Below the pieces are notes generated by a model. It had not been told where the DNA came from. It made no database searches and saw only the letters and a list, made by a program, of their open reading frames with translations. Shown here piece by piece: positions 202 to 32,387 of a DNA stretch of 64,000 nt. How positions within the stretch are numbered: the stretch's first letter is position 1; each line of letters begins with the position of its first letter. Origin of the DNA: Escherichia coli (lineage in GTDB: Bacteria; Pseudomonadota; Gammaproteobacteria; Enterobacterales; Enterobacteriaceae). Where the stretch lies: assembly GCF_016026235.1 (NCBI RefSeq), contig NZ_CP065613.1. One strand, given 5' to 3'. The position numbers and the translations under genes were made by a program.

Positions 202-212
202 GGAGATTCAAA

Positions 213-500
213 ATGAGTAATGTTTACTGGCCGTTATACGAAGTTTTCGTGCGTGGCAAACAGGGCTTATCACACCGCCATGTTGGCAGTTTACATGCTG
301 CCGATGAGCGGATGGCACTGGAAAATGCACGTGATGCTTACACCCGTCGTAGCGAAGGATGTTCAATTTGGGTGGTGAAGGCGAGTGAAATTGTTGCCTC
401 GCAACCGGAAGAACGCGGTGAATTTTTTGATCCGGCTGAAAGCAAAGTCTATCGCCATCCAACGTTTTACACCATCCCTGATGGCATTGAGCACATGTGA
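213..500 (+). CDS. paaB: Phenylacetyl-CoA epoxidase subunit B
   Basis: 95-aa ORF (MSNVYWPLYEVFVRGKQGL...) recognised as PaaB; ATG at 213 read directly. Confidence 0.9.
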   Translation: MSNVYWPLYEVFVRGKQGLSHRHVGSLHAADERMALENARDAYTRRSEGCSIWVVKASEIVASQPEERGEFFDPAESKVYRHPTFYTIPDGIEHM

Positions 501-508
501 GGTCGGAA

Positions 509-1255
509 ATGAATCAGTTAACGGCTTACACCTTGCGCCTGGGCGATAACTGCCTGGTGCTCTCCCAGCGGTTGGGGGAGTGGTGCGGTCATGCACCGGA
601 ACTGGAAATCGATCTCGCACTGGCAAATATTGGCCTCGATTTATTAGGCCAGGCACGCAACTTCTTATCGTATGCCGCTGAATTAGCGGGAGAAGGCGAT
701 GAAGATACCCTGGCCTTCACCCGAGACGAGCGCCAGTTCAGCAACTTATTGTTGGTTGAACAGCCAAACGGCAATTTTGCCGACACCATTGCACGCCAGT
801 ATTTCATCGATGCATGGCATGTGGCGCTCTTTACCCGTCTGATGGAAAGCCGTGATCCGCAACTGGCAGCGATTTCTGCCAAAGCAATTAAAGAAGCGCG
901 TTATCACCTGCGTTTTAGTCGTGGCTGGCTGGAGCGACTGGGCAATGGTACTGACGTTTCAGGGCAAAAGATGCAGCAGGCCATCAACAAGTTGTGGCGT
1001 TTTACCGCCGAACTGTTCGATGCCGACGAGATTGATATTGCACTGAGTGAAGAGGGTATTGCGGTTGATCCACGCACTTTACGCGCAGCGTGGGAGGCCG
1101 AAGTTTTTGCCGGGATCAACGAAGCCACATTGAACGTTCCGCAAGAGCAGGCGTATCGCACTGGCGGTAACAAAGGACTGCATACCGAACACCTTGGACC
1201 CATGCTGGCAGAAATGCAGTATCTCCAGCGTGTCTTGCCCGGTCAGCAATGGTAA
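509..1255 (+). CDS. paaC: Phenylacetyl-CoA epoxidase subunit C
   Basis: ORF 497..1255; the track start is GTG, the likely start is ATG at 509 (MNQLTAYTLRLGD...), giving 248 aa. Confidence 0.9.
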   Translation: MNQLTAYTLRLGDNCLVLSQRLGEWCGHAPELEIDLALANIGLDLLGQARNFLSYAAELAGEGDEDTLAFTRDERQFSNLLLVEQPNGNFADTIARQYFIDAWHVALFTRLMESRDPQLAAISAKAIKEARYHLRFSRGWLERLGNGTDVSGQKMQQAINKLWRFTAELFDADEIDIALSEEGIAVDPRTLRAAWEAEVFAGINEATLNVPQEQAYRTGGNKGLHTEHLGPMLAEMQYLQRVLPGQQW

Positions 1256-1269
1256 CAGAGGAGATGGGT

Positions 1270-1767
1270 ATGCAACGTCTGGCCACCATTGCACCGCCAC
1301 AGGTGCATGAGATATGGGCGCTACTCAGCCAGATCCCGGACCCGGAGATCCCGGTGCTGACCATTACCGATTTAGGCATGGTGCGTAATGTGACACAGAT
1401 GGGAGAAGGATGGGTGATCGGCTTCACGCCGACATATTCCGGTTGTCCGGCAACGGAACATTTGATTGGCGCGATACATGAGGCAATGACAACCAACGGG
1501 TTTACCCCCGTTCAGGTTGTGCTGCAACTCGACCCGGCATGGACCACCGACTGGATGACCCCCGATGCCCGTGAGCGTCTGCGACAGTATGGCATCAGCC
1601 CGCCCGCCGGACATAGTTGCCATGCCCATTTGCCGCCAGAAGTACGTTGCCCGCGCTGCGCCAGCGTCCATACCACACTTATCAGTGAATTTGGTTCCAC
1701 GGCCTGCAAAGCATTGTACCGCTGCGATAGTTGCCGCGAACCTTTCGATTATTTCAAATGTATTTGA
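1270..1767 (+). CDS. paaD: Phenylacetyl-CoA epoxidase subunit D
   Basis: ORF 1249..1767; likely start ATG at 1270 (MQRLATIAPPQVHEIW...), 165 aa, with C-terminal cysteine cluster. Confidence 0.85.
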   Translation: MQRLATIAPPQVHEIWALLSQIPDPEIPVLTITDLGMVRNVTQMGEGWVIGFTPTYSGCPATEHLIGAIHEAMTTNGFTPVQVVLQLDPAWTTDWMTPDARERLRQYGISPPAGHSCHAHLPPEVRCPRCASVHTTLISEFGSTACKALYRCDSCREPFDYFKCI

Positions 1768-1774
1768 GGATGCC

Positions 1775-2845
1775 ATGACAACGTTTCATTCCTTAACGGT
1801 GGCAAAAGTGGAGCCGGAAACCCGTGATGCGGTGACCATTACCTTTGCGGTGCCCCAGCCTTTGCAGGAGGCGTATCGCTTTCGCCCCGGTCAACATTTG
1901 ACCTTAAAAGCCAGCCTTGATGGTGAAGAATTACGCCGTTGTTACTCCATTTGCCGCAGCTACCTGCCTGGCGAAATTAGTGTGGCGGTGAAAGCTATTG
2001 AAGGCGGACGTTTCTCCCGCTATGCCCGCGAACACATCCGCCAGGGGATGACGCTGGAGGTCATGGTGCCGCAGGGGTATTTCGGCTATCAGCCGCAGGC
2101 CGAACGCCAGGGCCGCTATCTGGCAATTGCAGCAGGATCAGGTATTACGCCAATGCTGGCGATTATCGCCACCACTTTACAAACCGAGCCTGAAAGTCAG
2201 TTCACCCTGATCTACGGTAACCGTACCAGCCAGAGCATGATGTTTCGCCAGGCACTGGCAGACCTGAAAGACAAATATCCTCAGCGTTTACAGTTATTGT
2301 GTATTTTCAGTCAGGAAACCCTCGACAGCGATCTGCTTCACGGGCGTATTGACGGTGAAAAATTACAGTCACTTGGGGCCTCGCTCATTAATTTTCGTCT
2401 TTATGATGAGGCCTTTATTTGTGGTCCGGCGGCGATGATGGATGACGCGGAAGCTGCCTTAAAAGCACTGGGAATGCCAGAAAAAGCGATTCATCTGGAG
2501 CGGTTTAATACGCCTGGCACGCGCGTCAAACGTAACGTTAACGTGCAAAGTGACGGACAAAAAGTGACTGTACGTCAGGATGGGCGGGATCGGGAAATCG
2601 TGCTTAATGCCGACGATGAAAGCATTCTCGATGCGGCATTGCGCCAGGGGGCTGATCTGCCCTATGCCTGCAAAGGCGGCGTCTGTGCGACCTGCAAATG
2701 CAAAGTGCTGCGTGGCAAAGTGGCGATGGAAATCAATTACAGTCTGGAACCGGATGAACTGGCCGCAGGCTATGTGTTGAGTTGCCAGGCACTGCCGCTG
2801 ACCAGCGATGTGGTGGTTGACTTTGACGCGAAGGGGATGGCATGA
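1775..2845 (+). CDS. paaE: Phenylacetyl-CoA epoxidase reductase subunit (ferredoxin-NADPH reductase with 2Fe-2S domain)
   Basis: In-frame part of ORF 1565..2845; ATG at 1775 (MTTFHSLTVAKVEPE...) gives 356 aa; C-terminal CxxxxCxxC...C ferredoxin motif visible. Confidence 0.9.
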   Translation: MTTFHSLTVAKVEPETRDAVTITFAVPQPLQEAYRFRPGQHLTLKASLDGEELRRCYSICRSYLPGEISVAVKAIEGGRFSRYAREHIRQGMTLEVMVPQGYFGYQPQAERQGRYLAIAAGSGITPMLAIIATTLQTEPESQFTLIYGNRTSQSMMFRQALADLKDKYPQRLQLLCIFSQETLDSDLLHGRIDGEKLQSLGASLINFRLYDEAFICGPAAMMDDAEAALKALGMPEKAIHLERFNTPGTRVKRNVNVQSDGQKVTVRQDGRDREIVLNADDESILDAALRQGADLPYACKGGVCATCKCKVLRGKVAMEINYSLEPDELAAGYVLSCQALPLTSDVVVDFDAKGMA

Positions 2846-3609
2846 GCGAACTGATCGTCAGCCGTCAGCAACAAGTATTGTTACTGACCCTTAACCGTCC
2901 TGCCGCACGTAATGCGCTGAATAATGCCCTGCTGACGCAACTGGTAAATGAGCTGGAAGCTGCGGCTACCGATACCAGCATTTCGGTCTGTGTGATTACC
3001 GGTAATGCACGCTTTTTTGCCGCCGGGGCCGATCTCAACGAAATGGCGGAAAAAGATCTTGCGGCCACCTTTAACGATACACGTCCGCAGCTATGGGCGC
3101 GATTGCAGGCCTTTAACAAACCACTCATCGCAGCCGTCAACGGTTACGCGCTTGGTGCAGGTTGCGAACTGGCATTGTTGTGCGATGTGGTGGTTGCCGG
3201 AGAGAACGCGCGTTTTGGGTTGCCGGAAATCACTCTCGGCATCATGCCTGGCGCAGGCGGAACGCAACGTTTAATCCGTAGTGTTGGTAAATCGTTAGCC
3301 AGCAAAATGGTGCTGAGCGGAGAAAGCATCACCGCCCAGCAAGCACAGCAGGCCGGGCTGGTTAGCGACGTCTTCCCCAGCGATCTAACCCTCGAATACG
3401 CCTTACAGCTGGCATCGAAAATGGCACGTCACTCGCCGCTGGCCTTACAAGCGGCAAAGCAAGCGCTGCGCCAGTCGCAGGAAGTGGCTTTGCAAGCCGG
3501 ACTTGCCCAAGAGCGGCAGTTATTCACCTTGCTGGCGGCAACAGAAGATCGTCATGAAGGCATCTCCGCTTTCTTACAAAAACGCACGCCCGACTTTAAA
3601 GGACGCTAA
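2842..3609 (+). CDS. paaF: Enoyl-CoA hydratase (2,3-dehydroadipyl-CoA hydratase)
   Basis: 255-aa ORF recognised as crotonase-fold PaaF; start overlaps the paaE stop. Confidence 0.9.
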   Translation: MSELIVSRQQQVLLLTLNRPAARNALNNALLTQLVNELEAAATDTSISVCVITGNARFFAAGADLNEMAEKDLAATFNDTRPQLWARLQAFNKPLIAAVNGYALGAGCELALLCDVVVAGENARFGLPEITLGIMPGAGGTQRLIRSVGKSLASKMVLSGESITAQQAQQAGLVSDVFPSDLTLEYALQLASKMARHSPLALQAAKQALRQSQEVALQAGLAQERQLFTLLAATEDRHEGISAFLQKRTPDFKGR

Positions 3610-4397
3610 TGATGGAATTGATCCTCAGTCATGTAGAAAAGGGCGTGATGACACTAACGCTCAACCGCCCGGAACGCCTGAACAGTTTTAATGATGAGAT
3701 GCACGCACAACTGGCAGAGTGTCTGAAACAGGCCGAGCGCGACGACACTATCCGTTGCCTGTTGATTACAGGTGCCGGGCGCGGATTTTGTGCTGGTCAG
3801 GATCTTAACGATCGTAACGTTGATCCCACTGGCCCCGCACCGGATTTAGGTATGTCAGTGGAGCGTTTCTATAACCCACTGGTACGTCGCCTGGCAAAAC
3901 TGCCAAAACCGGTGATCTGTGCAGTTAATGGCGTGGCGGCAGGGGCAGGCGCAACACTGGCACTGGGGTGCGACATCGTTATTGCTGCCCGTTCAGCAAA
4001 ATTCGTCATGGCGTTTAGTAAGTTAGGTTTAGTACCCGATTGCGGTGGTACCTGGTTACTGCCACGCGTTGCCGGACGAGCGCGCGCCCTGGGGCTGGCA
4101 CTGCTGGGGAATCAACTGAGTGCTGAACAGGCGCACGAATGGGGGATGATCTGGCAGGTTGTTGATGATGAAACGCTGGCAGATACCGCGCAACAGCTGG
4201 CACGGCATCTGGCGACCCAACCGACATTTGGTCTTGGACTTATCAAGCAAGCGATAAATAGCGCTGAAACCAATACGCTCGATACGCAACTGGATCTGGA
4301 ACGCGACTATCAGCGACTTGCCGGACGGAGCGCAGATTATCGTGAAGGTGTCAGTGCGTTCCTGGCTAAACGCTCACCGCAGTTCACGGGGAAATAG
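3609..4397 (+). CDS. paaG: Enoyl-CoA isomerase (crotonase family)
   Basis: 262-aa ORF recognised as PaaG. Confidence 0.9.
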   Translation: MMELILSHVEKGVMTLTLNRPERLNSFNDEMHAQLAECLKQAERDDTIRCLLITGAGRGFCAGQDLNDRNVDPTGPAPDLGMSVERFYNPLVRRLAKLPKPVICAVNGVAAGAGATLALGCDIVIAARSAKFVMAFSKLGLVPDCGGTWLLPRVAGRARALGLALLGNQLSAEQAHEWGMIWQVVDDETLADTAQQLARHLATQPTFGLGLIKQAINSAETNTLDTQLDLERDYQRLAGRSADYREGVSAFLAKRSPQFTGK

Positions 4398-4398
4398 C

Positions 4399-5826
4399 AT
4401 GATGATAAATGTGCAAACTGTGGCAGTGATTGGGAGCGGCACCATGGGGGCTGGCATTGCTGAAGTTGCCGCCAGTCATGGACATCAGGTTTTACTGTAT
4501 GACATTTCTGCTGAAGCGCTGACCCGCGCAATCGACGGGATACACGCGCGGCTAAATTCACGCGTGACGCGGGGAAAACTGACTGCTGAAACCTGTGAAC
4601 GCACATTGAAACGCCTGATCCCGGTGACCGATATTCACGCGCTGGCAGCTGCGGACCTGGTCATTGAAGCGGCGTCTGAACGTCTGGAAGTCAAAAAAGC
4701 GCTCTTTGCACAGCTGGCGGAAGTTTGCCCGCCACAAACGCTATTGACCACTAACACTTCGTCAATCTCTATAACCGCGATTGCTGCGGAGGTAAAAAAT
4801 CCTGAACGTGTTGCGGGGCTGCATTTTTTTAACCCGGCACCGGTGATGAAGTTGGTGGAGGTGGTCAGTGGGCTGGCAACGGCAGCGGAAGTTGTTGAGC
4901 AGTTGTGTGAACTAACGTTGAGTTGGGGTAAGCAGCCTGTGCGCTGTCATTCGACCCCTGGATTTATCGTTAACCGTGTGGCGCGTCCTTATTATTCCGA
5001 GGCCTGGCGGGCACTGGAAGAGCAGGTTGCTGCACCAGAAGTGATTGACGCTGCACTTCGCGATGGCGCTGGTTTCCCGATGGGGCCGCTGGAATTAACC
5101 GATCTGATTGGTCAGGACGTCAATTTTGCTGTCACCTGTTCGGTGTTTAACGCTTTCTGGCAGGAGCGTCGTTTTTTACCTTCGCTGGTGCAACAGGAAC
5201 TGGTGATTGGTGGACGGTTGGGCAAGAAAAGTGGGCTGGGCGTGTACGACTGGCGCGCGGAACGTGAGGCAGTTGTTGGCCTGGAAGCGGTAAGCGACAG
5301 TTTTAGCCCAATGAAAGTAGAAAAGAAAAGTGACGGTGTCACGGAAATTGACGATGTTTTATTGATTGAGACACAAGGCGAGACGGCACAGGCGCTGGCA
5401 ATACGACTGGCACGCCCGGTGGTAGTGGTCGACAAAATGGCGGGCAAGGTGGTGACCATTGCTGCGGCAGCGGTGAACCCGGACTCAGCGACCCGCAAGG
5501 CCATTTATTACCTGCAACAGCAGGGCAAAACAGTGCTGCAAATTGCAGATTACCCAGGAATGCTGATTTGGCGAACGGTAGCAATGATCATCAATGAAGC
5601 CCTTGATGCGCTGCAAAAAGGCGTGGCCTCTGAACAGGATATCGATACCGCCATGCGTCTTGGGGTGAATTATCCATATGGCCCGCTTGCCTGGGGAGCG
5701 CAACTTGGCTGGCAGCGAATATTAAGGCTCCTGGAAAATCTACAATATCACTATGGCGAAGAACGCTATCGCCCATGTTCATTGCTGCGCCAACGAGCGC
5801 TTCTGGAGAGCGGTTATGAGTCATAA
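4399..5826 (+). CDS. paaH: 3-hydroxyadipyl-CoA dehydrogenase
   Basis: ORF 4318..5826; likely start ATG at 4399 (MMINVQTVAVIGSGTMGAGIA, NAD-binding GxGxxG), 475 aa. Confidence 0.9.
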   Translation: MMINVQTVAVIGSGTMGAGIAEVAASHGHQVLLYDISAEALTRAIDGIHARLNSRVTRGKLTAETCERTLKRLIPVTDIHALAAADLVIEAASERLEVKKALFAQLAEVCPPQTLLTTNTSSISITAIAAEVKNPERVAGLHFFNPAPVMKLVEVVSGLATAAEVVEQLCELTLSWGKQPVRCHSTPGFIVNRVARPYYSEAWRALEEQVAAPEVIDAALRDGAGFPMGPLELTDLIGQDVNFAVTCSVFNAFWQERRFLPSLVQQELVIGGRLGKKSGLGVYDWRAEREAVVGLEAVSDSFSPMKVEKKSDGVTEIDDVLLIETQGETAQALAIRLARPVVVVDKMAGKVVTIAAAAVNPDSATRKAIYYLQQQGKTVLQIADYPGMLIWRTVAMIINEALDALQKGVASEQDIDTAMRLGVNYPYGPLAWGAQLGWQRILRLLENLQYHYGEERYRPCSLLRQRALLESGYES

Positions 5827-6238
5827 GGCCTGGCAAAATGCCCATGCAATGTATGAGAACGATGCCTGCGCCAAAGCGCTTGGCATCGACATTATCTCAA
5901 TGGATGAAGGCTTTGCTGTAGTGACCATGACCGTCACTGTACAAATGCTTAATGGTCATCAAAGTTGCCACGGCGGGCAGCTATTTTCACTGGCTGATAC
6001 TGCCTTTGCCTACGCCTGCAATAGCCAGGGGTTGGCAGCTGTCGCTTCTGCCTGCACGATTGATTTTTTACGTCCAGGCTTTGCCGGAGACACCTTAACT
6101 GCGACTGCGCAGGTACGTCATCAGGGCAAGCAAACCGGTGTTTACGACATCGAAATTGTTAACCAACAACAAAAAACGGTTGCGCTGTTTCGCGGTAAAT
6201 CTCACCGCATCGGCGGCACCATTACAGGAGAAGCCTGA
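5816..6238 (+). CDS. paaI: Hotdog-fold acyl-CoA thioesterase
   Basis: ORF 5753..6238; likely start ATG at 5816 (MSHKAWQNAHAMYEND...), 140 aa. Confidence 0.85.
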   Translation: MSHKAWQNAHAMYENDACAKALGIDIISMDEGFAVVTMTVTVQMLNGHQSCHGGQLFSLADTAFAYACNSQGLAAVASACTIDFLRPGFAGDTLTATAQVRHQGKQTGVYDIEIVNQQQKTVALFRGKSHRIGGTITGEA

Positions 6239-7443
6239 TGCGTGAAGCCTTTATCTGTGACGGAATTCGTACGCCAATTGGTCGCTACGGCGGGGCATTA
6301 TCAGGTGTTCGGGCTGACGATCTGGCTGCTATCCCTTTGCGGGAGCTGCTGGTGCGAAACCCGCGTCTCGATGCGGAGTGTATCGATGATGTGATCCTCG
6401 GCTGTGCTAATCAGGCGGGAGAAGACAACCGTAACGTAGCACGGATGGCGACGTTACTGGCGGGGCTGCCGCAGAGTGTTTCCGGCACAACCATTAACCG
6501 CTTGTGTGGTTCCGGGCTGGACGCACTGGGGTTCGCCGCACGGGCGATTAAAGCGGGCGATGGCGATTTGCTGATCGCTGGTGGCGTGGAGTCAATGTCT
6601 CGGGCACCGTTTGTTATGGGCAAGGCAACCAGTGCATTTTCTCGTCAGGCTGAGATGTTTGATACCACTATTGGCTGGCGATTTGTGAACCCGCTCATGG
6701 CTCAACAATTTGGAACTGACAGCATGCCGGAAACGGCAGAGAATGTAGCTGAACTGTTAAAAATCTCGCGAGAAGATCAAGATAGTTTTGCGCTACGCAG
6801 TCAGCAACGTACGGCAAAAGCGCAATCCTCAGGCATTCTGGCTGAGGAGATTGTTCCGGTTGTGTTGAAAAACAAGAAAGGCGTTGTAACAGAAATACAA
6901 CATGATGAGCATCTGCGCCTGGAAACGACGCTGGAACAGTTACGTGGGTTAAAAGCACCGTTTCGTGCCAATGGGGTGATTACCGCAGGCAATGCCTCCG
7001 GGGTGAATGACGGAGCCGCTGCGTTGATTATTGCCAGTGAACAGATGGCAGCAGCGCAAGGACTGACGCCGCGGGCGCGTATCGTAGCCATGGCAACCGC
7101 CGGGGTGGAACCGCGTCTGATGGGGCTTGGTCCGGTGCCTGCAACTCGCCGGGTGCTGGAACGCGCGGGGCTGAGTATTCACGATATGGACGTGATTGAA
7201 CTGAACGAAGCGTTCGCGGCCCAGGCGTTGGGTGTACTACGCGAATTGGGGCTGCCTGATGATGCCCCACATGTTAACCCCAACGGAGGCGCTATCGCCT
7301 TAGGCCATCCGTTGGGAATGAGTGGTGCCCGCCTGGCACTGGCTGCCAGCCATGAGCTGCATCGGCGTAACGGTCGTTACGCATTATGCACCATGTGCAT
7401 CGGTGTCGGTCAGGGCATCGCCATGATTCTGGAGCGTGTTTGA
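6238..7443 (+). CDS. paaJ: 3-oxoadipyl-CoA / 3-oxo-5,6-dehydrosuberyl-CoA thiolase
   Basis: 401-aa ORF recognised as a thiolase ([19 protein letters not shown]...). Confidence 0.9.
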
Positions 7444-7469
7444 GCATATCAACCTGCGAGTACCCTACA

Positions 7470-8783
7470 ATGATAACCAATACAAAGCTTGACCCGATTG
7501 AAACCGCGTCTGTTGATGAGTTACAGGCGTTGCAAACACAGCGTCTGAAATGGACGCTCAAACACGCGTATGAAAATGTCCCGATGTATCGGCGCAAATT
7601 CGACGCAGCAGGCGTACATCCTGATGATTTCAGGGAACTTTCAGACCTGCGTAAATTTCCCTGTACCACCAAACAGGATCTGCGCGACAACTATCCCTTT
7701 GACACCTTTGCCGTGCCGATGGAACAAGTGGTGCGCATTCATGCTTCTTCGGGAACCACAGGTAAACCGACAGTTGTCGGTTATACGCAAAACGATATTG
7801 ATAACTGGGCCAATATTGTAGCGCGTTCTTTGCGTGCGGCAGGGGGCTCGCCCAAAGACAAAATTCATGTTGCCTATGGTTACGGCCTGTTTACTGGTGG
7901 GCTGGGCGCGCACTATGGTGCCGAACGTCTGGGCGCTACGGTGATCCCGATGTCTGGCGGGCAGACGGAAAAACAAGCGCAACTGATCCGCGATTTTCAA
8001 CCAGATATGATCATGGTTACGCCATCTTATTGCCTTAACCTGATTGAAGAGCTGGAGCGGCAGTTGGGCGGTGATGCCAGCGGTTGCTCGCTGCGGGTTG
8101 GCGTGTTTGGTGCTGAGCCGTGGACACAGGCCATGCGTAAAGAGATTGAACGGCGTCTGGGGATCACCGCACTGGATATTTATGGCCTGTCAGAAGTGAT
8201 GGGGCCGGGGGTGGCGATGGAGTGTCTGGAAACTACCGACGGTCCAACCATTTGGGAAGATCATTTCTATCCTGAAATTGTTAATCCTCATGACGGCACA
8301 CCGCTTGCCGATGGTGAACATGGCGAACTGTTATTCACCACGCTGACCAAAGAAGCATTGCCGGTCATTCGTTACCGCACGCGTGATTTAACCCGACTGT
8401 TACCAGGAACGGCGCGGACTATGCGCCGCATGGATCGCATCAGCGGACGCAGTGATGACATGTTGATTATTCGCGGTGTAAATGTCTTTCCGTCACAACT
8501 GGAAGAAGAGATTGTCAAATTCGAACATTTATCGCCCCATTACCAACTGGAGGTGAACCGCCGGGGGCATCTTGATTCACTTTCTGTGAAAGTGGAGTTG
8601 AAAGAAAGTAGCCTGACATTGACGCATGAGCAGCGTTGCCAGGTATGCCACCAGCTGCGCCATCGGATTAAGTCGATGGTGGGGATCTCTACCGATGTGA
8701 TGATCGTTAACTGTGGCAGTATCCCGCGTTCAGAAGGCAAGGCGTGTCGGGTGTTTGATCTGCGCAATATTGTTGGTGCCTGA
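7470..8783 (+). CDS. paaK: Phenylacetate-CoA ligase
   Basis: ORF 7386..8783; likely start ATG at 7470 (MITNTKLDPIETASVDELQ...), 437 aa. Confidence 0.9.
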   Translation: MITNTKLDPIETASVDELQALQTQRLKWTLKHAYENVPMYRRKFDAAGVHPDDFRELSDLRKFPCTTKQDLRDNYPFDTFAVPMEQVVRIHASSGTTGKPTVVGYTQNDIDNWANIVARSLRAAGGSPKDKIHVAYGYGLFTGGLGAHYGAERLGATVIPMSGGQTEKQAQLIRDFQPDMIMVTPSYCLNLIEELERQLGGDASGCSLRVGVFGAEPWTQAMRKEIERRLGITALDIYGLSEVMGPGVAMECLETTDGPTIWEDHFYPEIVNPHDGTPLADGEHGELLFTTLTKEALPVIRYRTRDLTRLLPGTARTMRRMDRISGRSDDMLIIRGVNVFPSQLEEEIVKFEHLSPHYQLEVNRRGHLDSLSVKVELKESSLTLTHEQRCQVCHQLRHRIKSMVGISTDVMIVNCGSIPRSEGKACRVFDLRNIVGA

Positions 8784-8791
8784 CGTGTCGT

Positions 8792-8823
8792 CTGGCCCTG
8801 GTGAGGTAAAGCGCCAGGGCCAG
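8792..8823 (+). terminator. Stem-loop downstream of paaK (CTGGCCCTGG ... CCAGGGCCAG); putative operon terminator
   Basis: 10-bp perfect inverted repeat directly after the paaK stop; no strong T-tract, so strength is uncertain. Confidence 0.35.
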
Positions 8824-8883
8824 AAGTCGATACGACCTGTGCTATGATTCATAAATCACAACAATAACAACAGACTGAATCGA

Positions 8884-9834
8884 ATGAGTAAACTTGATAC
8901 TTTTATCCAACATGCTGTAAACGCTGTTCCGGTCAGTGGCACATCTTTGATCTCCTCTCTGTATGGTGATTCGCTTTCCCATCGTGGTGGTGAAATCTGG
9001 CTGGGTAGTCTGGCTGCTTTGCTGGAAGGGCTGGGATTTGGTGAGCGTTTCGTGCGCACCGCTTTGTTTCGTCTTAATAAAGAAGGATGGCTGGATGTTT
9101 CCCGCATCGGGCGACGCAGTTTCTATAGCCTCAGTGATAAAGGCTTGCGCCTGACGCGACGGGCAGAAAGTAAAATTTATCGCGCAGAGCAACCTGCATG
9201 GGATGGTAAATGGCTCCTGTTGCTCTCGGAAGGTTTAGATAAATCAACGCTGGCTGATGTCAAAAAGCAGTTGATCTGGCAAGGTTTTGGCGCACTGGCA
9301 CCCAGCCTGATGGCATCGCCGTCGCAAAAACTGGCGGATGTACAGACACTTTTGCATGAAGCGGGGGTGGCGGATAACGTGATTTGTTTTGAAGCGCAAA
9401 TACCACTGGCGCTTTCTCGCGCAGCACTGCGTGCCAGAGTAGAAGAGTGCTGGCATTTAACTGAACAAAATGCCATGTACGAAACCTTTATTCAGTCATT
9501 CCGCCCGCTGGTGCCGCTGTTAAAAGAGGCGGCGGAGGAGTTAACCCCGGAGCGTGCATTTCATATTCAGCTTTTACTGATCCATTTTTATCGCCGTGTC
9601 GTCCTTAAAGATCCATTGTTGCCGGAGGAGTTGCTTCCGGCGCACTGGGCAGGGCATACGGCGCGTCAGCTGTGTATCAACATTTATCAGCGCGTAGCGC
9701 CTGCTGCTTTAGCGTTCGTTAGTGAAAAAGGTGAAACCTCGGTCGGTGAACTGCCTGCGCCGGGAAGCCTGTATTTTCAACGTTTTGGCGGTTTGAATAT
9801 TGAACAGGAGGCATTATGCCAATTTACCAGATAG
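8884..9834 (+). CDS. paaX: Phenylacetyl-CoA-responsive transcriptional repressor of the paa operon
   Basis: 316-aa ORF recognised as PaaX; position after paaK. Confidence 0.9.
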
Positions 9835-10406
9835 ATGGTCTGACTCCGGTTGTGCCAGAAGAGAGTTTTGTCCATCCGACAGCGGTATTGATCGGCGATG
9901 TTATTCTAGGCAAGGGCGTTTACGTTGGGCCAAATGCCAGCCTGCGTGGCGATTTTGGTCGTATCGTGGTGAAAGATGGCGCGAACATTCAGGATAATTG
10001 CGTTATGCACGGTTTTCCCGAGCAGGATACTGTCGTTGAAGAAGATGGGCATATTGGTCATAGCGCTATCCTTCACGGCTGCATTATCCGCCGCAATGCA
10101 TTAGTGGGAATGAACGCGGTAGTGATGGACGGCGCGGTGATTGGCGAGAACAGCATTGTTGGCGCATCCGCATTTGTGAAAGCCAAAGCAGAAATGCCTG
10201 CCAATTACCTGATTGTCGGCAGCCCGGCGAAAGCGATTCGTGAACTCAGTGAGCAGGAGCTGGCATGGAAAAAGCAGGGTACGCATGAGTATCAGGTGCT
10301 GGTGACTCGTTGTAAGCAGACGTTGCATCAAGTTGAGCCATTGCGGGAAGTTGAACCGAACAGGAAACGTCTGGTATTTGATGAGAATCTGCGACCGAAA
10401 CAGTAA
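9816..10406 (+). CDS. paaY: Hexapeptide-repeat (left-handed beta-helix) thioesterase / acyltransferase
   Basis: 196-aa ORF recognised as PaaY; overlaps the paaX 3' end. Confidence 0.9.
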
Positions 10407-10450
10407 CGTCCAGATACTGAACATTCTAATTTTTAGCATGTGATACCTAA

Positions 10451-10483
10451 ACCGCAACGCTGATACAGGTTGCGGTTTTTTTA
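10451..10483 (+). terminator. Rho-independent terminator after paaY
   Basis: CCGCAAC...GTTGCGG stem followed by a T7 run, about 45 nt after the paaY stop. Confidence 0.6.
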
Positions 10484-10637
10484 TTGCCGGATGCGGCGCT
10501 TTACGCGTTTTGTTTTGGTGTCTTTCAGGACAATAGAGCAACTCATCCAGTAATCTTGTTTACACCTTCGCATTATTTATCTCTTTTCATTTCTATACTG
10601 ATTTTTCTTAATCCGTTTTATTACAGGGCAGGGTGCG

Positions 10638-11498
10638 ATGAGCAGCAATACATTTACTCTCGGTACAAAATCCGTTAACCGTCTTGGTTATGGCGCGATG
10701 CAACTGGCAGGTCCTGGGGTTTTTGGCCCCCCAAGAGATCGCCACGTCGCTATAACTGTGCTGCGTGAGGCGCTGGCATTGGGCGTCACTCACATTGATA
10801 CCAGCGACTTTTATGGTCCGCACGTCACCAATCAGATTATCCGCGAAGCGCTTTATCCTTACTCTGACGACCTGACAATTGTCACTAAAATTGGTGCGCG
10901 GCGTGGAGAGGACGCTTCCTGGTTGCCCGCCTTTTCTCCGGCAGAGTTGCAAAAAGCGGTGCACGATAATCTACGTAATCTCGGCCTGGACGTACTGGAT
11001 GTGGTTAACCTGCGCGTTATGATGGGGGATGGTCATGGCCCAGCGGAAGGATCGATTGAGGCCAGCCTGACCGTGCTGGCAGAGATGCAACAACAAGGCC
11101 TGGTAAAACATATTGGCCTGAGCAACGTCACACCGACGCAGGTTGCAGAGGCGCGCAAGATTGCCGAAATTGTCTGTGTGCAAAACGAATACAACATCGC
11201 GCACCGTGCTGATGATGCAATGATTGATGCTTTGGCCCACGATGGCATTGCCTACGTGCCGTTCTTCCCGCTCGGGGGCTTTACACCGCTGCAATCGTCC
11301 ACACTTTCCGATGTTGCTGCGAGCCTGGGTGCAACACCCATGCAGGTGGCGCTGGCGTGGCTGTTACAACGTTCACCGAATATTTTGCTGATCCCAGGGA
11401 CGTCTTCTGTTGCGCATTTACGGGAGAATATGGCTGCTGAAAAATTGCATCTTTCTGAGGAAGTGTTGTCTACGTTGGATGGTATTTCGCGAGAATAA
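10638..11498 (+). CDS. ydbC: Aldo-keto reductase family oxidoreductase
   Basis: 286-aa ORF recognised as AKR-fold YdbC. Confidence 0.85.
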   Translation: MSSNTFTLGTKSVNRLGYGAMQLAGPGVFGPPRDRHVAITVLREALALGVTHIDTSDFYGPHVTNQIIREALYPYSDDLTIVTKIGARRGEDASWLPAFSPAELQKAVHDNLRNLGLDVLDVVNLRVMMGDGHGPAEGSIEASLTVLAEMQQQGLVKHIGLSNVTPTQVAEARKIAEIVCVQNEYNIAHRADDAMIDALAHDGIAYVPFFPLGGFTPLQSSTLSDVAASLGATPMQVALAWLLQRSPNILLIPGTSSVAHLRENMAAEKLHLSEEVLSTLDGISRE

Positions 11499-11507
11499 CG
11501 AATATAC

Positions 11508-11546
11508 AAAAGGGAAAGATGCATTTCCCTTTTGTTTCTTTTTTAA
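11508..11546 (+). terminator. Rho-independent terminator after ydbC
   Basis: AGGGAAA...TTTCCCT stem followed by a T-rich tract. Confidence 0.55.
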
Positions 11547-11561
11547 TGGCATGGAGTGCAT

Positions 11562-13868
11562 ATGTTTAAGGCCAGGATTTGCGGCTGGATAGGTTTACTT
11601 CCCCTGTTTATGCTGAGTCTTCCAGTACAGGCGGAACTTCGATGTGTTGCAAATACAGTTGATATTGAACCATTTTTTTCTGCGGCTACCGCTGAAGATA
11701 AACAACAAGTTGAACAAGCTATCAACAGTAGCGTGAATCTTGTCCCCTTCGGTTTATCTGCATCGGACTGGAAAGTGCATCGTGGCGATTTAGTGGTAGA
11801 AGGTAATATAGAGAGTAATCAAAAATTGATTGTTCTTGGTAATTTGACAGTCAAAGGTAATATTTCCACTTTCTCTCTTTCTAATCCATGGGTTATTCTC
11901 GGTAACGTGACGGCAACGAATATAGTTACGGATTCACCACTGTTAATTACCGGTTCGATAAATGCAAGTGGACTGGTATTTATCGACTCATATTACGATA
12001 ATCCGTCTACGATTAAGGGGAGTATTAATGCGCGTGGGATATTTATCAATGACATAATTGCACCTGTTGTTGCGTCTTCGACAAATAGTGAATTCATGGT
12101 CCGTGCGAGTGACAAAAATGACACTGAAAATGTCAAAAAAGCGCTGATGATAATAAATCCTGATGCATATTATTGGGGTCTAATAAATGATGAAGATGCT
12201 CTGAAAGAAATTTTTAAGCGAAGCAATATTCGCATGGCAGGGAATGTCTGTAATCAGATGAAAAAAAAAGCGCTGTTTCGCCCTAAGCCTTCTCCTGAGT
12301 TAGTGCAGGAATTGCAAATGCTGGATGAAGGCAACGTTGCTGCATTTGAAGGACGAGATATTGCGACATTTGATCTTGCCATAATGCGAACTCTCCCAAG
12401 GCTTAAAGGAATTTCAGCTAACCTACGCAAACAACTTATTAATAGCAATGATGAACAAACGATTGAAAGTATGGCGAGATATATGCCTGACAATGAGATT
12501 CTGGAGTTGACCGATCAGCAATTGGGTTACCAGCCTGTTGTTCTGGGGTTGCTCGACCGTGAACCGCTCTCTGTCGAAATAATGACGCGAATGAGTCGTC
12601 TACCTGATGGTGTCGGTCCGTTGAATCTTGCGCTACGTGAAAATCTCCCTCTGGATATCGTAATGACTCTGGCGAAAAGAGATTGGGATATGATCATTCA
12701 GGAGCTTTATAAAGATGCGTGGTTATTGCCTGAACCCATTATTGATGGCTATATCCGCAGTGATGATTCATCTATTCGTCAGGTCGGTGCTGGAGGACAA
12801 CTCACCTACAATCAGGCAATGCAGTTGGCGAACGATTCATCAAACAATGTTGTCACAAGCTTAGCGTTCAAGCTGGCAGAGATGAAACACCATGGTCAAT
12901 TATTGCGGATGACGCCACAAGAGAGTGACAAAGTTGCAGCCTATTTATACCAAAAATTCGAGAATGACGATGATCTAATACGTGTGTTATTTTTAGCATT
13001 GCCAGATAACTTACAGTTTAATTTTGTTAAAAGGATGAAGAAAAAATCCCCTGCCTACTTTTGCTGTCGGGATATGCAGGTAATTCACTCTGACGCTGCT
13101 CTACAACGGTTATTGACACGTTTCAACGATCCTGAGGGGTGGAGTAATCTGGCGAAAAATCAGTATCTGAGCACATCGATGAAACAAAAAATTTGGCAAC
13201 GTGCTTTATCGCATCGGAAAAATAATCCGAAAGCAGATTCAGCTGCGTATGAAACCAGCGCTGATATGATTTTGTCTGAGCTTATCAGCCACGGTGAAGT
13301 TGATGATCAGATGCTATTAAATGCCACCGCCCTGATACGTTTGGAAGACTGGGACTTTTTAGAGAGTGCATTAGTTAGTTGGGATAATTTACCCGCTGTT
13401 GTCCTCAAGGAATTACAGCAAAATACGCCACGCAATGATATTTGGGCGAAGTTTTTTCTGAGGCAGGAAAACAGCTCCCGTGCGCAGGTTGATGAAGCAT
13501 TACGCGTCTATTATGCACTCGACCCCGATGCGTTAGCACAACTGGATGTACTGGCAAAACAACCGGATCGTATATGGTGGAGTACACTGGCGAAAAGCAA
13601 TCTCACATTTTTCAAGTTCGGCGCACTTAACAACCGCCACACATCGCCTGCAGTACTGGCGGCAGAAATTGATCCCGAGTGGTGGATTGTGGCGATGAAT
13701 AATCCCCGTTTTCCAGTTGATGTATTAAAGGCGAGGCTGAAACGTGATCCTTTGCTGGCGTTAGAGCTTGTTAACCCTGAACTGGATTTAGTCCGCCAGC
13801 TGGCGCTTAACGGTAAGACGCGCGCAATACGGGAACAAGCGATGAGAAAACTTGATGAGTTGTATTGA
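11562..13868 (+). CDS. ydbD: Large secreted protein of unknown function, N-terminal signal peptide
   Basis: ORF 11556..13868 (track start GTG); ATG at 11562 (MFKARICGWIGLLPLFMLSLPVQA|ELR, signal-peptide-like). Recognised as YdbD. Confidence 0.85.
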   Translation: MFKARICGWIGLLPLFMLSLPVQAELRCVANTVDIEPFFSAATAEDKQQVEQAINSSVNLVPFGLSASDWKVHRGDLVVEGNIESNQKLIVLGNLTVKGNISTFSLSNPWVILGNVTATNIVTDSPLLITGSINASGLVFIDSYYDNPSTIKGSINARGIFINDIIAPVVASSTNSEFMVRASDKNDTENVKKALMIINPDAYYWGLINDEDALKEIFKRSNIRMAGNVCNQMKKKALFRPKPSPELVQELQMLDEGNVAAFEGRDIATFDLAIMRTLPRLKGISANLRKQLINSNDEQTIESMARYMPDNEILELTDQQLGYQPVVLGLLDREPLSVEIMTRMSRLPDGVGPLNLALRENLPLDIVMTLAKRDWDMIIQELYKDAWLLPEPIIDGYIRSDDSSIRQVGAGGQLTYNQAMQLANDSSNNVVTSLAFKLAEMKHHGQLLRMTPQESDKVAAYLYQKFENDDDLIRVLFLALPDNLQFNFVKRMKKKSPAYFCCRDMQVIHSDAALQRLLTRFNDPEGWSNLAKNQYLSTSMKQKIWQRALSHRKNNPKADSAAYETSADMILSELISHGEVDDQMLLNATALIRLEDWDFLESALVSWDNLPAVVLKELQQNTPRNDIWAKFFLRQENSSRAQVDEALRVYYALDPDALAQLDVLAKQPDRIWWSTLAKSNLTFFKFGALNNRHTSPAVLAAEIDPEWWIVAMNNPRFPVDVLKARLKRDPLLALELVNPELDLVRQLALNGKTRAIREQAMRKLDELY

Positions 13869-28094: not shown

Positions 28095-28268
28095 ATGAAA
28101 AAACTGGCACTTATTTTGTTTATGGGAACGCTTGTTTCCTTTTATGCCGATGCCGGGCGCAAACCCTGTTCTGGTTCGAAAGGGGGGATCTCACACTGTA
28201 CGGCAGGCGGCAAATTTGTCTGTAATGATGGTTCTATTAGTGCATCGAAAAAAACATGCACTAACTGA
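28095..28268 (+). CDS. ydcA: Small secreted protein (57 aa, signal peptide)
   Basis: ATG at 28095 with an upstream GGAGG; MKKLALILFMGTLVSFYADA... to TGA at 28266-28268. Below the ORF-track length cutoff, read by hand. Confidence 0.75.
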   Translation: MKKLALILFMGTLVSFYADAGRKPCSGSKGGISHCTAGGKFVCNDGSISASKKTCTN

Positions 28269-28328
28269 AGTGTAAAAGGGGTGCCATGAGAAAATGAATC
28301 TGCTAGTCAGATGCGCGGGGAAAATCCC

Positions 28329-29622
28329 CTGAGGGATCCCCAGAAAATTTAGTAAACCATTATCATATTGGTATACCGTTGCTGTAGAACTTTCAGCCCT
28401 GCGTCAAGTGACAGTGTGTTTAGTATGAGTGGAGAATGTCGAATCACATTCTCCGCCAGTTTTAATAACGAGATGACTCGCCTGTGCTTCACTGTATTTG
28501 CCTGATATTTATGATGTATCCCTTTGTTTTCCAGGCTGAAACCGCTTAACCACATAATGATACTGGCTAATGTTGCGATCAGACTCAATACCGTGACCCG
28601 CCCGGATGAATGACTGGCACCAAACCGTAGTCCAAATCCCCAGCGAGGATTTTTTTCATCCCTGAAATTTTGCTCAATTTGCATTCTACGGCTGTATAAT
28701 TTCATTACCTGTTTTGGCGAGAACTCAGTACTGTTTGTGAAAATAAACCATGGTGATTTCCCGGCAGTACGAGCTTTAGCCGTCACCGATGGTCTGGTTG
28801 CTCTTTCCTTCGAGCGTTTAAATCTACGACCTTTAGGCTTACTTTTATAAAGATAAAAATGCCCTTCATGTTGTGCATTTTTATCTCGACCCAGCAGGCC
28901 TTCACCTAAATAAATTGCTGTCGTTGATGCTTTTGTGCCTGAGTCCGACACCTTTTCCCAGCCATTACCAACATTGTAATAATGATTGCCCAGTACCCGG
29001 CAAATATAGGTCCAGCCACGGGAGCGGAGCTGTTGGAACCATCGCCCCTGAAAACCGGCATCTGTAATAACAATGACATCAGTCCCGGGGGAAAAGCACT
29101 CAGCAAGCGATTCCAGAAAACGCTCATGTACATCTGCATTCGCTGTCTGTGATGATGGAACGACACAACTCATCAACGGTAAAGAACGCCCGTCACATGC
29201 CAGGCTTGCCCGCAAAAGCTGAAAACGAGAGGCATGATAAGCACTCCAGTCAATGAGTATCACAACACGAGACATTCCCCGCGTAATCTTTTGGGTAATT
29301 CGCTGAAAAATGGTGGAAACCTCATTTTGCAAATGTCGATTCCCCAACAGTCGATCCACCCGCTTTATTTTGTTTTTAACTGATGCCGTACCGGTTAAAT
29401 GACGCCCGATACTGGTAAGTGTGAGGGAAGCGCCATTTATTACAGCATTAGTTGCGTCAATCAGTGATTTTTGACGGTAAAGATGCAAAGGGGCCAGTAT
29501 GTTGTTAAGGAAATTTTGGCATAATGAACGTGCAGGCATAGTGGTGATCTCCTTGAAATTGTTAGCACAATCAATTAGATCACATCTCACTATGCCTGTC
29601 TTGTTTTCTGGGGATTCCTCAG
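28329..29622 (-). mobile_element. IS4-family (IS10-like) insertion sequence, about 1.29 kb, with 19-bp imperfect terminal inverted repeats
   Basis: Left end CTGAGGGATCCCCAGAAAA (28329-28347) and right end TTTTCTGGGGATTCCTCAG (29604-29622) match 18/19 as inverted repeats and resemble the IS10 terminus (CTGA..ATCCCC). Encodes a single transposase. Confidence 0.8.
28349..29539 (-). CDS. IS10-like DDE transposase (396 aa)
   Basis: Aligns by eye with the IS10 transposase as I recall it (KRVDRLLGNRHL, ILIDWS, DAGF, C-terminal YSRRMQIEQNFRDEK). Start taken as ATG at 29539 (MPARSLCQNF...); the track ORF extends 37 codons past the IS end. Confidence 0.85.
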   Translation of the reverse strand: MPARSLCQNFLNNILAPLHLYRQKSLIDATNAVINGASLTLTSIGRHLTGTASVKNKIKRVDRLLGNRHLQNEVSTIFQRITQKITRGMSRVVILIDWSAYHASRFQLLRASLACDGRSLPLMSCVVPSSQTANADVHERFLESLAECFSPGTDVIVITDAGFQGRWFQQLRSRGWTYICRVLGNHYYNVGNGWEKVSDSGTKASTTAIYLGEGLLGRDKNAQHEGHFYLYKSKPKGRRFKRSKERATRPSVTAKARTAGKSPWFIFTNSTEFSPKQVMKLYSRRMQIEQNFRDEKNPRWGFGLRFGASHSSGRVTVLSLIATLASIIMWLSGFSLENKGIHHKYQANTVKHRRVISLLKLAENVIRHSPLILNTLSLDAGLKVLQQRYTNMIMVY

Positions 29623-30917
29623 GGGAAGGCCACGCCTGCAACAGCGTCATGTTGACCGAGCAGGGTTAACGACAATTCGGTTTCCGTACCGGCGGCAATG
29701 GATTCCAGATTCCATTTGCCTTTTTCTCCCCAGCGGAAACCAATCGAACCGTTCGGCACTACCAATTCACCTGCGGTATTAACTGCTACGGTTTTCCACT
29801 GCGGATTGTTGCTTTCGCCCAGTCCATCCACCAGGTCAGATGCGCGGATCATGCGCCCAGGAACGTAGCTACCATCGTCGCGAGGCTCCAGCATTACCAG
29901 CATCGGCATGTCGCTGTAGCGGCGGCAGTAGTTGATAAAGTAGTCGCTGGGATTATCGAGATGAAACTCTTTTAAAATCACATGGCCCATTGCCATCGCC
30001 AGGGCGCTATCAGTGCCTTGTTTCGGTGCCAGCCACTGGTCGCACAATTTGGCCACTTCAGAGTAGTCAGGGGTAATGGCGATGGTTTTAGTGCCTTTGT
30101 AGCGTACTTCGGTAAAGAAGTGGGCGTCCGGCGTACGTGTCTGCGGTACGTTAGACCCCCAGGCGATGATGTAGCTGGAGTTATACCAGTCGGCAGATTC
30201 CGGTACGTCGGTTTGCTCGCCCTAGGTCATCGGCGAGGCGGGCGGCAGGTCGCAATACCAGTCGTAGAAACTTAAACAGGTGCCGCCAAGCAGCGACAGA
30301 TAACGCGTTCCGGCGGCGTAAGAAACCATCGACATCGCCGGGATCGGCGAGAAACCGGCAACGCGATCCGGGCCGTAGGTTTTGATGGTCCAGACGTTAG
30401 CGGCGGCAATCAGCTGGTTTAGTTCCTGCCAGTTGGAGCGGATAAACCCGCCGCGCCCACGCACTTGTTTGTAGCTCAGGCACTTTTGCGGATCGTTCAT
30501 AATCGATGCCCACGCCAGTACCGGATCGCTGTGTTGCTTGAGGGCTTCGCGCCACAGTTCAATCAGTCGTTTACGAATGAGCGGGTATTTCAGGCGGTTA
30601 GCGCTGTAAAGATACCAGGAGTAACTTGCGCCACGCGGGCAGCCGCGAGGTTCATGATTGGGCAGGTCAGGGCGAGTGCGCGGGTAGTCGGTCTGTTGGA
30701 TTTCCCAGGTCACCAGACCATTTTTAACGTAGATTTTCCAGCTACAGGAGCCTGTACAGTTAACACCGTGGGTGGAACGCACGATTTTGTCGAACTGCCA
30801 ACGCTGGCGATAGCTGTCCTCCCAGTCGCGGTTGCTATGCATCACCTGTCCGTGACCATCGGCAAAGGTTTCGCCCTTTTGTTTGAAGTAGCGAAAGCGA
30901 TCCAAAAGTTTACTCAT
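29623..30917 (-). pseudogene. narZ: Respiratory nitrate reductase Z alpha subunit, 5' remnant (truncated by IS, plus in-frame TAG)
   Basis: Starts [24 protein letters not shown] at 30917; in-frame TAG at 30222-30224 (plus strand CTA); frame continues to the IS right end at 29622. Only about 430 of roughly 1,250 codons remain; no narY/narW/narV follows. Confidence 0.85.
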
Positions 30918-30998: not shown

Positions 30999-32387
30999 TT
31001 ATTTTTGGCTGAACTTCCGCCGACCATAAACCAGCCAGGTCAGCAGCACACAAACGATGTAGAAGATTAAAAACACTTTCATCGCGCCGACCGGAGAGTC
31101 GGTCATATTGAGCGACATGCCAAACGCCTGCGGAATAAAAAAGCCGCCCACTGCGCCAATGGCTGAGATAAAGCCCAGAGCCGCCGCCGTTTCGGTGACG
31201 GCTTCTTTCTGAGCTTGCTCATCACTACCGCCTTTCATCTTTACCCGATAAATGGTTATCTGGCGAAAGATGACGGCGATCATCTGGAAAGTAGAACCAC
31301 TTCCCAGACCCGCAGTCAGAAACAGCCCCATAAATACGGCGTAAAAGGCGATGAAATTACCGGAGCCTGTGCCCGGTAAGGTAAGGAACAGCAGGGCACT
31401 GAAAATCGCCATAAAAATAAAGTTGATCAACGTCACCCGCACGCCGCCGAACTTATCGGAAATAGCACCACCAACCGACCGCGCGATGGCACCGATAAAT
31501 GGGCCAAAGAACGCCAGGCGCAGAATATTCACATCCGGGAACTGGGTTTTTGCCAGCATGGCAAAACCCGCAGAAAAACCGATAAACGAACCGAAGGTGG
31601 CAAGGTAAAGCAGGCTCAGCAGCCAGAGATGCAGGCGTTGTAAGACAGGGAGCTGGTCGGCAATTGAGGCGCGTGAACTGGCGATATCATTCATCCCTGA
31701 CCAGGCGGCGATCGTGGCAATCGCCAGTAGCGGTACCCAAATCCATGCGGCATTCGCCAGCGACATCACCGAACCGTCGGCCTGCGGTACGCCATTGACG
31801 CCGAGAAAGGCAAATACAGGTACAAAAATGACCAGCGGTGCAACCAGCTGCATTACACTTACACCTAAGTTTCCTAATCCGCCATTAATCCCAAGAGCGC
31901 TCCCTTGTTTGGCTTTTGGAAAGAAGAAACTGATATTGCCCATGCTCGAAGCAAAGTTTGCACCTGCAAAACCGCATAGCAAAGCGATAACGATAAATAT
32001 CCCAAAAGGAGTATTCGGATTTTGCACGGCAATTCCGAGCCAGACGCAAGGAATAATCAGGATTGCAGTACTAAAAACCGTCCATCGGCGTCCACCGAAT
32101 ATAGGCACCATAAAGGAGTAGGGAACACGCAATAATGCGCCAGAAACGGAGGGTAATGCGGTTAATAAAAAGAGTTGATCGGTAGTAAAATTAAAACCGA
32201 TTTTATTGAGATTAACGGTAACTGCGCTAAATAGCATCCAGACACAGAAGGCAAGAAGTAGACAACTGACTGATATCCAGAGGTTTCTTCGAGCAATATG
32301 TTTTCCTTTATTTTCCCAGAAGGCCGGATTTTCTGGTTTCCAGTCGCGTAAAAGATAACGACTATTTTTCTCATTTTGCAGTGCCAT
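30999..32387 (-). CDS. narU: Nitrate/nitrite transporter (MFS)
   Basis: ORF 30999..32447; likely start ATG at 32387 (MALQNEKNSRYLLRDW...), 462 aa. Confidence 0.9.
   Translation of the reverse strand: MALQNEKNSRYLLRDWKPENPAFWENKGKHIARRNLWISVSCLLLAFCVWMLFSAVTVNLNKIGFNFTTDQLFLLTALPSVSGALLRVPYSFMVPIFGGRRWTVFSTAILIIPCVWLGIAVQNPNTPFGIFIVIALLCGFAGANFASSMGNISFFFPKAKQGSALGINGGLGNLGVSVMQLVAPLVIFVPVFAFLGVNGVPQADGSVMSLANAAWIWVPLLAIATIAAWSGMNDIASSRASIADQLPVLQRLHLWLLSLLYLATFGSFIGFSAGFAMLAKTQFPDVNILRLAFFGPFIGAIARSVGGAISDKFGGVRVTLINFIFMAIFSALLFLTLPGTGSGNFIAFYAVFMGLFLTAGLGSGSTFQMIAVIFRQITIYRVKMKGGSDEQAQKEAVTETAAALGFISAIGAVGGFFIPQAFGMSLNMTDSPVGAMKVFLIFYIVCVLLTWLVYGRRKFSQK

Follow-up and report, generated by a model that had tools for sequence, protein, structure and literature searches.

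The window, the 64-kb stretch of E. coli DNA analysed here, contains, at 28329-29622, the 1,294-bp IS4-family element ISEc60, which lies between ydcA and a truncated narZ (Table 1). The ydcA reading frame stops at 28268, which leaves 60 bp between it and the element, and no open reading frame spans the ydcA-IS junction. On the other side, the element abuts the 5' part of narZ, and the remnant carries a nonsense codon, W232* (TGG to TAG, base 30223). The placement between ydcA and a truncated narZ had been given in a preliminary description of the sequence, and both the list of open reading frames and alignment to K-12 bear it out. The 19-bp terminal inverted repeats named there were also recovered: CTGAGGGATCCCCAGAAAA and CTGAGGAATCCCCAGAAAA, the right end being read as its reverse complement, agree at 18 of 19 positions, and the window contains no match besides these two, against 0 expected by chance.

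Table 1. Features at the ydcA-narZ junction, in window coordinates.
Feature	Position	Strand	Basis
ydcA, 57 aa, last intact gene left of the element	28095..28268	+	ORF list; aligns to K-12 ydcA b1419
Surviving left copy GGGAAAATCCC of the 11-bp duplication, ydcA-hokB insertion	28318..28328	.	K-12 empty site; two-copy relatives
ISEc60, probably a hybrid copy left by recombination	28329..29622	-	100% identical to annotated copies; 0 mismatches to both parental copies of GCA_014155105.1
Terminal inverted repeat, transposase 3' end, CTGAGGGATCCCCAGAAAA	28329..28347	+	
Transposase gene, intact, 396 aa + stop	28349..29539	-	NF033591 match; exact protein elsewhere
Leader hairpin, pairing the transposase Shine-Dalgarno and AUG with upstream sequence	29533..29598	-	inverted repeats I11, I12
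Terminal inverted repeat, transposase 5' end, CTGAGGAATCCCCAGAAAA	29604..29622	-	
Surviving right copy GGGAAGGCCA of the 10-bp duplication, narZ::ISEc60	29623..29632	.	both copies in GCA_014155105.1 and GCA_902503985.1
narZ remnant, 5' 1,295 bp of 3,741 bp	29623..30917	-	K-12 alignment, ORFs
narU, 462 aa, intact; same operon as the narZ remnant and upstream of it	30999..32387	-	

Immediately outside the element stand ...GGGAAAATCCC to the left and GGGAAGGCCA... to the right. No direct repeat of any length was found across the ends of the element in the window, so the earlier statement that it lacks a target-site duplication held after the ends were re-checked. In K-12, where the site is empty, GGGAAAATCCC makes up the loop and inner stem of a hairpin, GCGCGGGGAAAATCCCCGCGC, located between ydcA and hokB.

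Against K-12 MG1655, the match on the left runs up to position 1491910 and resumes on the right at position 1541296, within narZ (1538850-1542590, minus strand). The alignment, which had been proposed as a check, thus defines a missing interval of 49,385 bp (K-12 1491911-1541295), in line with the earlier statement that ydcA and narZ are tens of kb apart in K-12. Both flanks are collinear with K-12, which points to a deletion and not an inversion. The genes lost are hokB/mokB/sokB, trg, ydcI, opgD, tehAB, ydcSTUV, patD, ansP, rhsE, nhoA, narV, narW and narY, together with the 3' 2,446 bp of narZ.

ISEc60 and its target sites

Several genomes, CFSAN029787 and FDAARGOS_943 among them, have copies annotated as 'IS4-like element ISEc60 family transposase' to which the element is 100% identical over its 1,294 bp. 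Its transposase matches the NCBIfam model NF033591 (transpos_IS4_2, IS4 family transposase) with 360.5 bits against a cutoff of 152, and a Pfam DDE_Tnp_1 domain is on record for the identical protein; it is an IS4-family DDE transposase. A protein identical to it throughout is found in 512 blocks of the public collection. The gene had been judged intact, and the identity of its 396-aa product to that of many other copies agrees with this. A 433-aa open reading frame reaching 29650 is the same frame, extended upstream into the narZ flank. The leader hairpin lies in a segment (29520-29622) with a predicted RNA folding energy of -37.9 kcal/mol (z = -6.65). Full-length ISEc60 copies are present in 14 of 5,426 complete genomes, and the FDAARGOS_943 chromosome alone has the element at 38 places. 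Among species-representative genomes, the left end gave a single, uninformative match in Candidatus Erwinia dacicola. No solved structure matched the transposase by sequence, and a literature search found ISEc60 named only in passing, in two papers.

The preliminary description called the element IS10-like. ISEc60 is related to IS10, but it is not IS10. Like IS10/Tn10, it has an IS4-family DDE transposase, termini of the CTGA..ATCCCC form, a symmetric target preference and a leader hairpin over the start of the transposase gene, and to this extent the likeness in termini and a distant family kinship stand. However, its transposase is only 36% identical to that of IS10A/ISVsa5 over 93% of the length, its duplications are 10-11 bp long as opposed to 9 bp, and its targets are the loops of GGG-loop-CCC hairpins. 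IS10 is also 1,329 bp long, against 1,294 bp here. Neither the close transposase similarity nor the 9-bp duplication that together define the IS10 group was found.

To determine duplication size, the IS ends were set at CTGAGG...CCTCAG in ∼17 simple insertions; these came from several plasmids, two contig-level genomes, FDAARGOS_943 and CFSAN029787, and the insertions shared at ydcA-hokB and narZ were counted once per genome. These copies carry both terminal inverted repeats and a duplication, mostly of 10 bp (GAGAATTCCC, GAGAATTTCC, GAATTATCCC, GGGAACTCGC, GGGTCAAAGC, GAGTGATCCC, GGTAAATCCC, GGGGAAACCC, GGGATTTTCC and GGGATAACCA are examples) and less often of 11 bp, at GGGAAAATCCC sites. The duplications of other copies are thus longer than the 9 bp anticipated. 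Every duplication has a G-rich start and is preceded by G, and in 10 of 11 sites it is followed by C. Many of the sites form the loop of a GC-stemmed hairpin. About one quarter of the ISEc60 copies examined have no duplication, which indicates that rearranged copies are common for this element.

The ydcA-hokB and narZ target sites have both been reused by ISEc60. An insertion of opposite orientation at the same narZ base occurs in a strain of unrelated background (locus L043). Tandem IS dimers were also seen. ISEc60 may be unusually site-selective, choosing GGG-loop-CCC hairpins (often terminators), reusing the same bases in both orientations and moving as tandem IS-10 bp-IS dimers, and the same few sites, including ydcA-hokB and narZ, could be repeatedly seeding parallel large deletions in enteroinvasive E. 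coli. We regard this proposal as plausible, though with somewhat more doubt than confidence.

Relatives carrying the parental insertions

Relatives with the insertions were found by look-up of the truncated NarZ products that the junction makes, and then of the predicted product of the other half of the gene. Some look-ups led elsewhere. Those of the 145-aa and 432-aa truncated NarZ products also led to narZ nonsense or frameshift variants without an IS (loci L023, L041 and L042), the look-up of a 797-aa downstream NarZ fragment returned only frameshift variants, and there was no record of the hypothetical 859-aa product of an insertion in the opposite orientation.

The ydcA side of the junction goes back to an ordinary insertion. 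FDAARGOS_943, which is 99.9-100% identical to the window wherever the two overlap, shares the ISEc60 insertion after ydcA down to the base and the orientation, with hokB on the far side and both 11-bp copies of GGGAAAATCCC. Its ydcA-narZ interval is present and its narZ is annotated as intact. This copy of ISEc60 is split by IS600 and IS1. The same ydcA-hokB insertion, uninterrupted and with both 11-bp copies, occurs in GCA_014155105.1 and GCA_901482675.2, and in the latter the interval between the insertion and narZ is again present. These relatives show that the window inherited its ydcA-side junction from an ordinary insertion. A further assembly, GCA_900449985.1, is 100% identical to the window over 12.7 kb (contig UGFA01000002.1) and is evidently where the window comes from.

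The narZ side also has an ordinary insertion behind it. GCA_902503985.1 contains both halves of a simple insertion of ISEc60 in narZ, which has a 10-bp duplication and agrees with the window in orientation and exact base. One contig (locus L044) runs from narU into the 5' part of narZ and ends with TGGCCTTCCC followed directly by CTGAGGAATCC. Another (locus L061) starts with the final 74 bp of the IS left end, which is followed by TGGCCTTCCC and, directly after it, CTACTTTGG, and continues through the rest of narZ into narY, narW and narV. In this genome codon W232 is intact, and the W232* mutation therefore arose after narZ had been broken. Another assembly, GCA_031665325.1, has the same narZ copy of ISEc60 joined to a Rac-like prophage instead (locus L081).

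Both insertions occur together on one 4.68-Mb contig (JAALAC010000002.1) of GCA_014155105.1. The narZ::ISEc60 copy is located at 4208430-4209723 and is flanked by a perfect 10-bp duplication of GGGAAGGCCA (locus L078). The copy between ydcA and hokB is located at 4256819-4258112 and is flanked by an 11-bp duplication of GGGAAAATCCC (locus L066). Both loci are forward, with the transposases on the + strand, and the copies are accordingly direct repeats. Their starts are 48,389 bp apart, the DNA between them measures 47,095 bp, and each copy is 100% identical to the IS of the window. The flanks are nearly as close, with 0 mismatches in 6,998 bp on the ydcA side and 1 in 9,771 bp on the narU side; the kinship of the source strain to GCA_014155105.1 is judged from these ∼17 kb of flanks only. 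The narZ W232* allele is common to both.

Origin of the deletion

The window has the same left junction as the ydcA copy and the same right junction as the narZ copy. Each flank therefore equals the flank of a separate parental insertion with a duplication of its own; the two parental copies are direct repeats, and precisely the DNA between them is missing. We consider it highly probable (roughly 0.9) that the deletion is the product of homologous recombination between two directly repeated copies of ISEc60. An ancestor would have carried two identical copies in the same orientation, ∼48 kb apart, one inserted in the loop of the ydcA-hokB hairpin with an 11-bp duplication of GGGAAAATCCC, and the other in narZ with a 10-bp duplication of GGGAAGGCCA. 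A single crossover between the 1,294-bp repeats would then have looped out the interval and one IS, amounting to 48,389 bp as measured in the two-copy relative or ∼49.4 kb in K-12 terms, and the excised circle would have been lost. The product would be a single intact hybrid IS that joins the flank of one insertion, on the ydcA side, to the flank of the other, on the narZ side, which is why it has no matching duplication. The exchange was presumably performed by host recombination of the RecA type. Recombination between IS copies is among the standard published causes of IS copies without duplications (PMC11708052). The two junctions could in principle have arisen independently through reuse of the same sites, but the near-zero divergence of the flanks makes this unlikely. 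The preliminary description had proposed an insertion followed by deletion of the whole block. The ydcA-side insertion did precede the loss, but the narZ junction is the right junction of a second insertion.

The same description read the junction as the footprint of an IS-mediated adjacent deletion. In a transposase-made event of this kind, a single ydcA-side ISEc60 would attack narZ on the same or a sister chromosome, and the DNA between would be removed while the IS stays in place. Low-frequency adjacent deletions promoted by IS10 were reportedly described by Roberts, Ascherman and Kleckner in Genetics in 1991. The likeness to such events lies in the end product, in which the IS is kept, one flank is replaced and no duplication is present, and in the related IS4-family transposases; adjacent deletions are also discussed in PMC11708052. 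In favour of such an event, the IS terminus coincides exactly with the junction, and the sequence on the narZ side resembles an ISEc60 target, ranking in the top 0.3% of interval positions under a matrix built from 11 real ISEc60 sites. Its leave-one-out score of 3.7 bits is below those of all 11 bona fide sites (6.1-17.9). The position weight matrix was rejected as a discriminator, since both mechanisms use a target chosen by the transposase. An adjacent deletion starts from one parental IS and creates its junction de novo at a site not occupied before, whereas here the junction already existed as a normal insertion in relatives: the narZ site is held by an ordinary ISEc60 with a 10-bp duplication in GCA_014155105.1 and GCA_902503985.1. 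GCA_014155105.1 moreover has the ydcA copy as well, in direct orientation, and differs from the window by 1 base in ∼17 kb of flanks. A single element would have had to strike the same base in the same orientation by coincidence, and we consider this origin very unlikely.

It is more improbable still that the deletion is an artefact of assembly, in which two IS copies were collapsed and the interval was dropped though present in the strain. Collapse across repeats is a known assembly error, and the narZ-IS contigs of ∼20 draft assemblies fit a precursor or a deletion product equally well. However, the 4.56-Mb source contig spans many IS copies, and the source assembly is one that we take to be based on long reads, which easily cross a 1.3-kb repeat. 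In addition, among contigs of more than 1 Mb, the Trg protein specific to this lineage was found on just two, one from GCA_014155105.1 and the other from FDAARGOS_943; the source contig was not among them. The chance that short-homology (illegitimate) recombination ended by accident at the IS terminus is close to nil: the IS end with the 11-bp duplication (CAG followed by GGGAAAATCC) does have 7 bases, AGGGGAA, in common with K-12 narZ (tAG followed by GGGAAGGCC), but these are explained by the preference of ISEc60 for a G-rich target start, and a real narZ insertion is present in close relatives.

Recombination between the two ISEc60 copies has known counterparts. Examples are the loss of the rbs operon through IS150 in the Lenski lines and gene loss through IS1 and IS600 in Shigella and enteroinvasive E. 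coli; there, too, a dispensable interval is flanked by two identical, directly repeated copies of an IS. The product is also the same, a single hybrid IS without a matching duplication and with the genes between lost. The present case differs in nothing essential, with ISEc60 as the element and hokB to narZ as the interval.

Distribution and meaning

The right junction between narZ and the IS was found in ∼20 public samples, and it is present in the enteroinvasive E. coli O143:H26 strain 4608-58 (JTCO01; PMC4319576). It was absent from all 5,426 complete E. coli genomes, and no exact match was found among JGI metagenome contigs. This junction is common to the precursor and the deletion product, and contigs assembled from short reads end inside the IS. 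It therefore does not discriminate between the two states, and the deletion is confirmed in the source genome only.

The event is a textbook route of gene loss that involves a catalogued IS in an IS-rich lineage of enteroinvasive E. coli. As such it has little importance beyond bookkeeping, as one step in the IS-driven genome reduction of this lineage. The functions lost with the interval are the hokB/sokB toxin-antitoxin system, trg, opgD, tehAB, the ydcSTUV transporter and the second nitrate reductase, NarZYWV. More curious are side features of the element: its targeting of hairpin loops, its tandem dimers and its repeated return to one narZ base. The general point concerns how a duplication-less IS is to be read: one genome is insufficient to call an 'adjacent deletion', and it is a close relative with both parental copies that settles the origin of such an element.

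ISEc60 target choice and reuse of the narZ site

ISEc60 duplicates 10 bp of its target, sometimes 11 bp, and its preferred site has the form G|G-R-R...C-C|C, as seen at loci L024-L040, L066 and L078 in other public genomes and at window 28318-28328. Many of the sites are loops of GC-stemmed hairpins with a terminator-like appearance. One target, GGGGAAAATCCCC, has received independent insertions, chromosomal as well as plasmid-borne, in both orientations.

The narZ site has also been used more than once. In GCA_030001855.1, which represents another E. coli background (99.4% identity), narZ is joined to ISEc60 at exactly the same base as in the window, but via the opposite end of the element and thus in the opposite orientation. 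The contig stops inside the IS. This junction (L043) represents an independent ISEc60 hit on the narZ site used in the window. GCA_031665325.1 (L081) has a right narZ-IS junction identical to that of the window and lacks the duplication; on the far side of the IS lie Gam, AAA_24, DUF1187, DUF1233, a phage integrase and a TtcA-like gene, a Rac prophage-like set. This looks like a parallel, larger rearrangement via the same narZ copy of ISEc60.

In FDAARGOS_943, a close relative that keeps the interval lost from the window, a further ISEc60 copy within that interval (L004 23867-25057) truncates ansP and borders on a Mu-like prophage; this copy lacks a duplication and is oriented opposite to the ydcA copy. 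Tandem ISEc60 dimers with the 10-bp spacer GGTAAATCCC are found in GCA_031665585.1 (L025/L026) and on pCFSAN029787_01 (L035). The ydcA-hokB gap of GCA_031665585.1 holds an ISEc60 dimer flanked by the 10-bp duplication GGAAAATCCC. Since the spacer matches the duplication of the ogt-adjacent ISEc60 copy in FDAARGOS_943, the data suggest that both IS copies of the dimer moved together, as one composite unit.

Coding changes in the narZ remnant and near its target site

Within the narZ remnant, codon 232 has become a nonsense codon (W232*, TGG to TAG). Comparison of narZ sequences showed that W232* is common to the window and its near-identical relative GCA_014155105.1, and is missing from FDAARGOS_943 and GCA_902503985.1. 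The nonsense change arose after narZ was disrupted, because GCA_902503985.1 already has the narZ insertion yet lacks W232*. An identical 231-aa truncated NarZ product is encoded, too, by unrelated E. coli with a full narZYWV operon.

Many public assemblies have differing narZ nonsense or frameshift changes no more than a few dozen bases from the IS target site, around CCTTCCCCTAC, and several contigs end exactly at this place. Either genuine variation or noise from assembly could account for this.

Features of the window and of the compared loci
Feature	Window position	Loci elsewhere
Region compared with FDAARGOS_943 (paa operon, ydbD)	1-13100	
gapC, intact, 333 aa	26130-27131	
Leader hairpin, minus strand	29533-29598	
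W232* codon (changed base 30223)	30222-30224	
Junction of 7,355-bp deletion	47166	FDAARGOS_943 record 1243360-1250714
narZ nonsense/frameshift variants near IS target		L023, L041, L042, L051-L056
Contig ends at narZ target-site region		L045-L050

Other differences from FDAARGOS_943

Window 1-13100 and positions 24255, 34053 and 43936 were compared with L005, L001, L004 and L006. The whole paa operon and ydbD are kept in the window and were lost between IS1 copies in FDAARGOS_943. FDAARGOS_943 further has several IS600 and IS1 insertions with no counterpart in the window; these lie in ydcF, near yddL and maeA, and within its ydcA ISEc60 copy. These two close relatives diverged mainly via IS activity. 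Relative to FDAARGOS_943, the window also has a clean deletion running from within ddpD, through dosP, into dosC; no IS is present at this junction, and the shared sequence is only 1 base. The window's lineage has an intact gapC; the K-12 gapC is a pseudogene.

A predicted hairpin in the transposase leader

Folding of the transposase leader predicts a strong hairpin (-37.9 kcal/mol, z = -6.65), pairing the Shine-Dalgarno sequence and AUG with sequence near the IS end. It resembles the fold-back inhibition that guards IS10 against read-through transcripts. This is relevant at this locus, because narU-narZ transcription now enters the IS in the sense direction.
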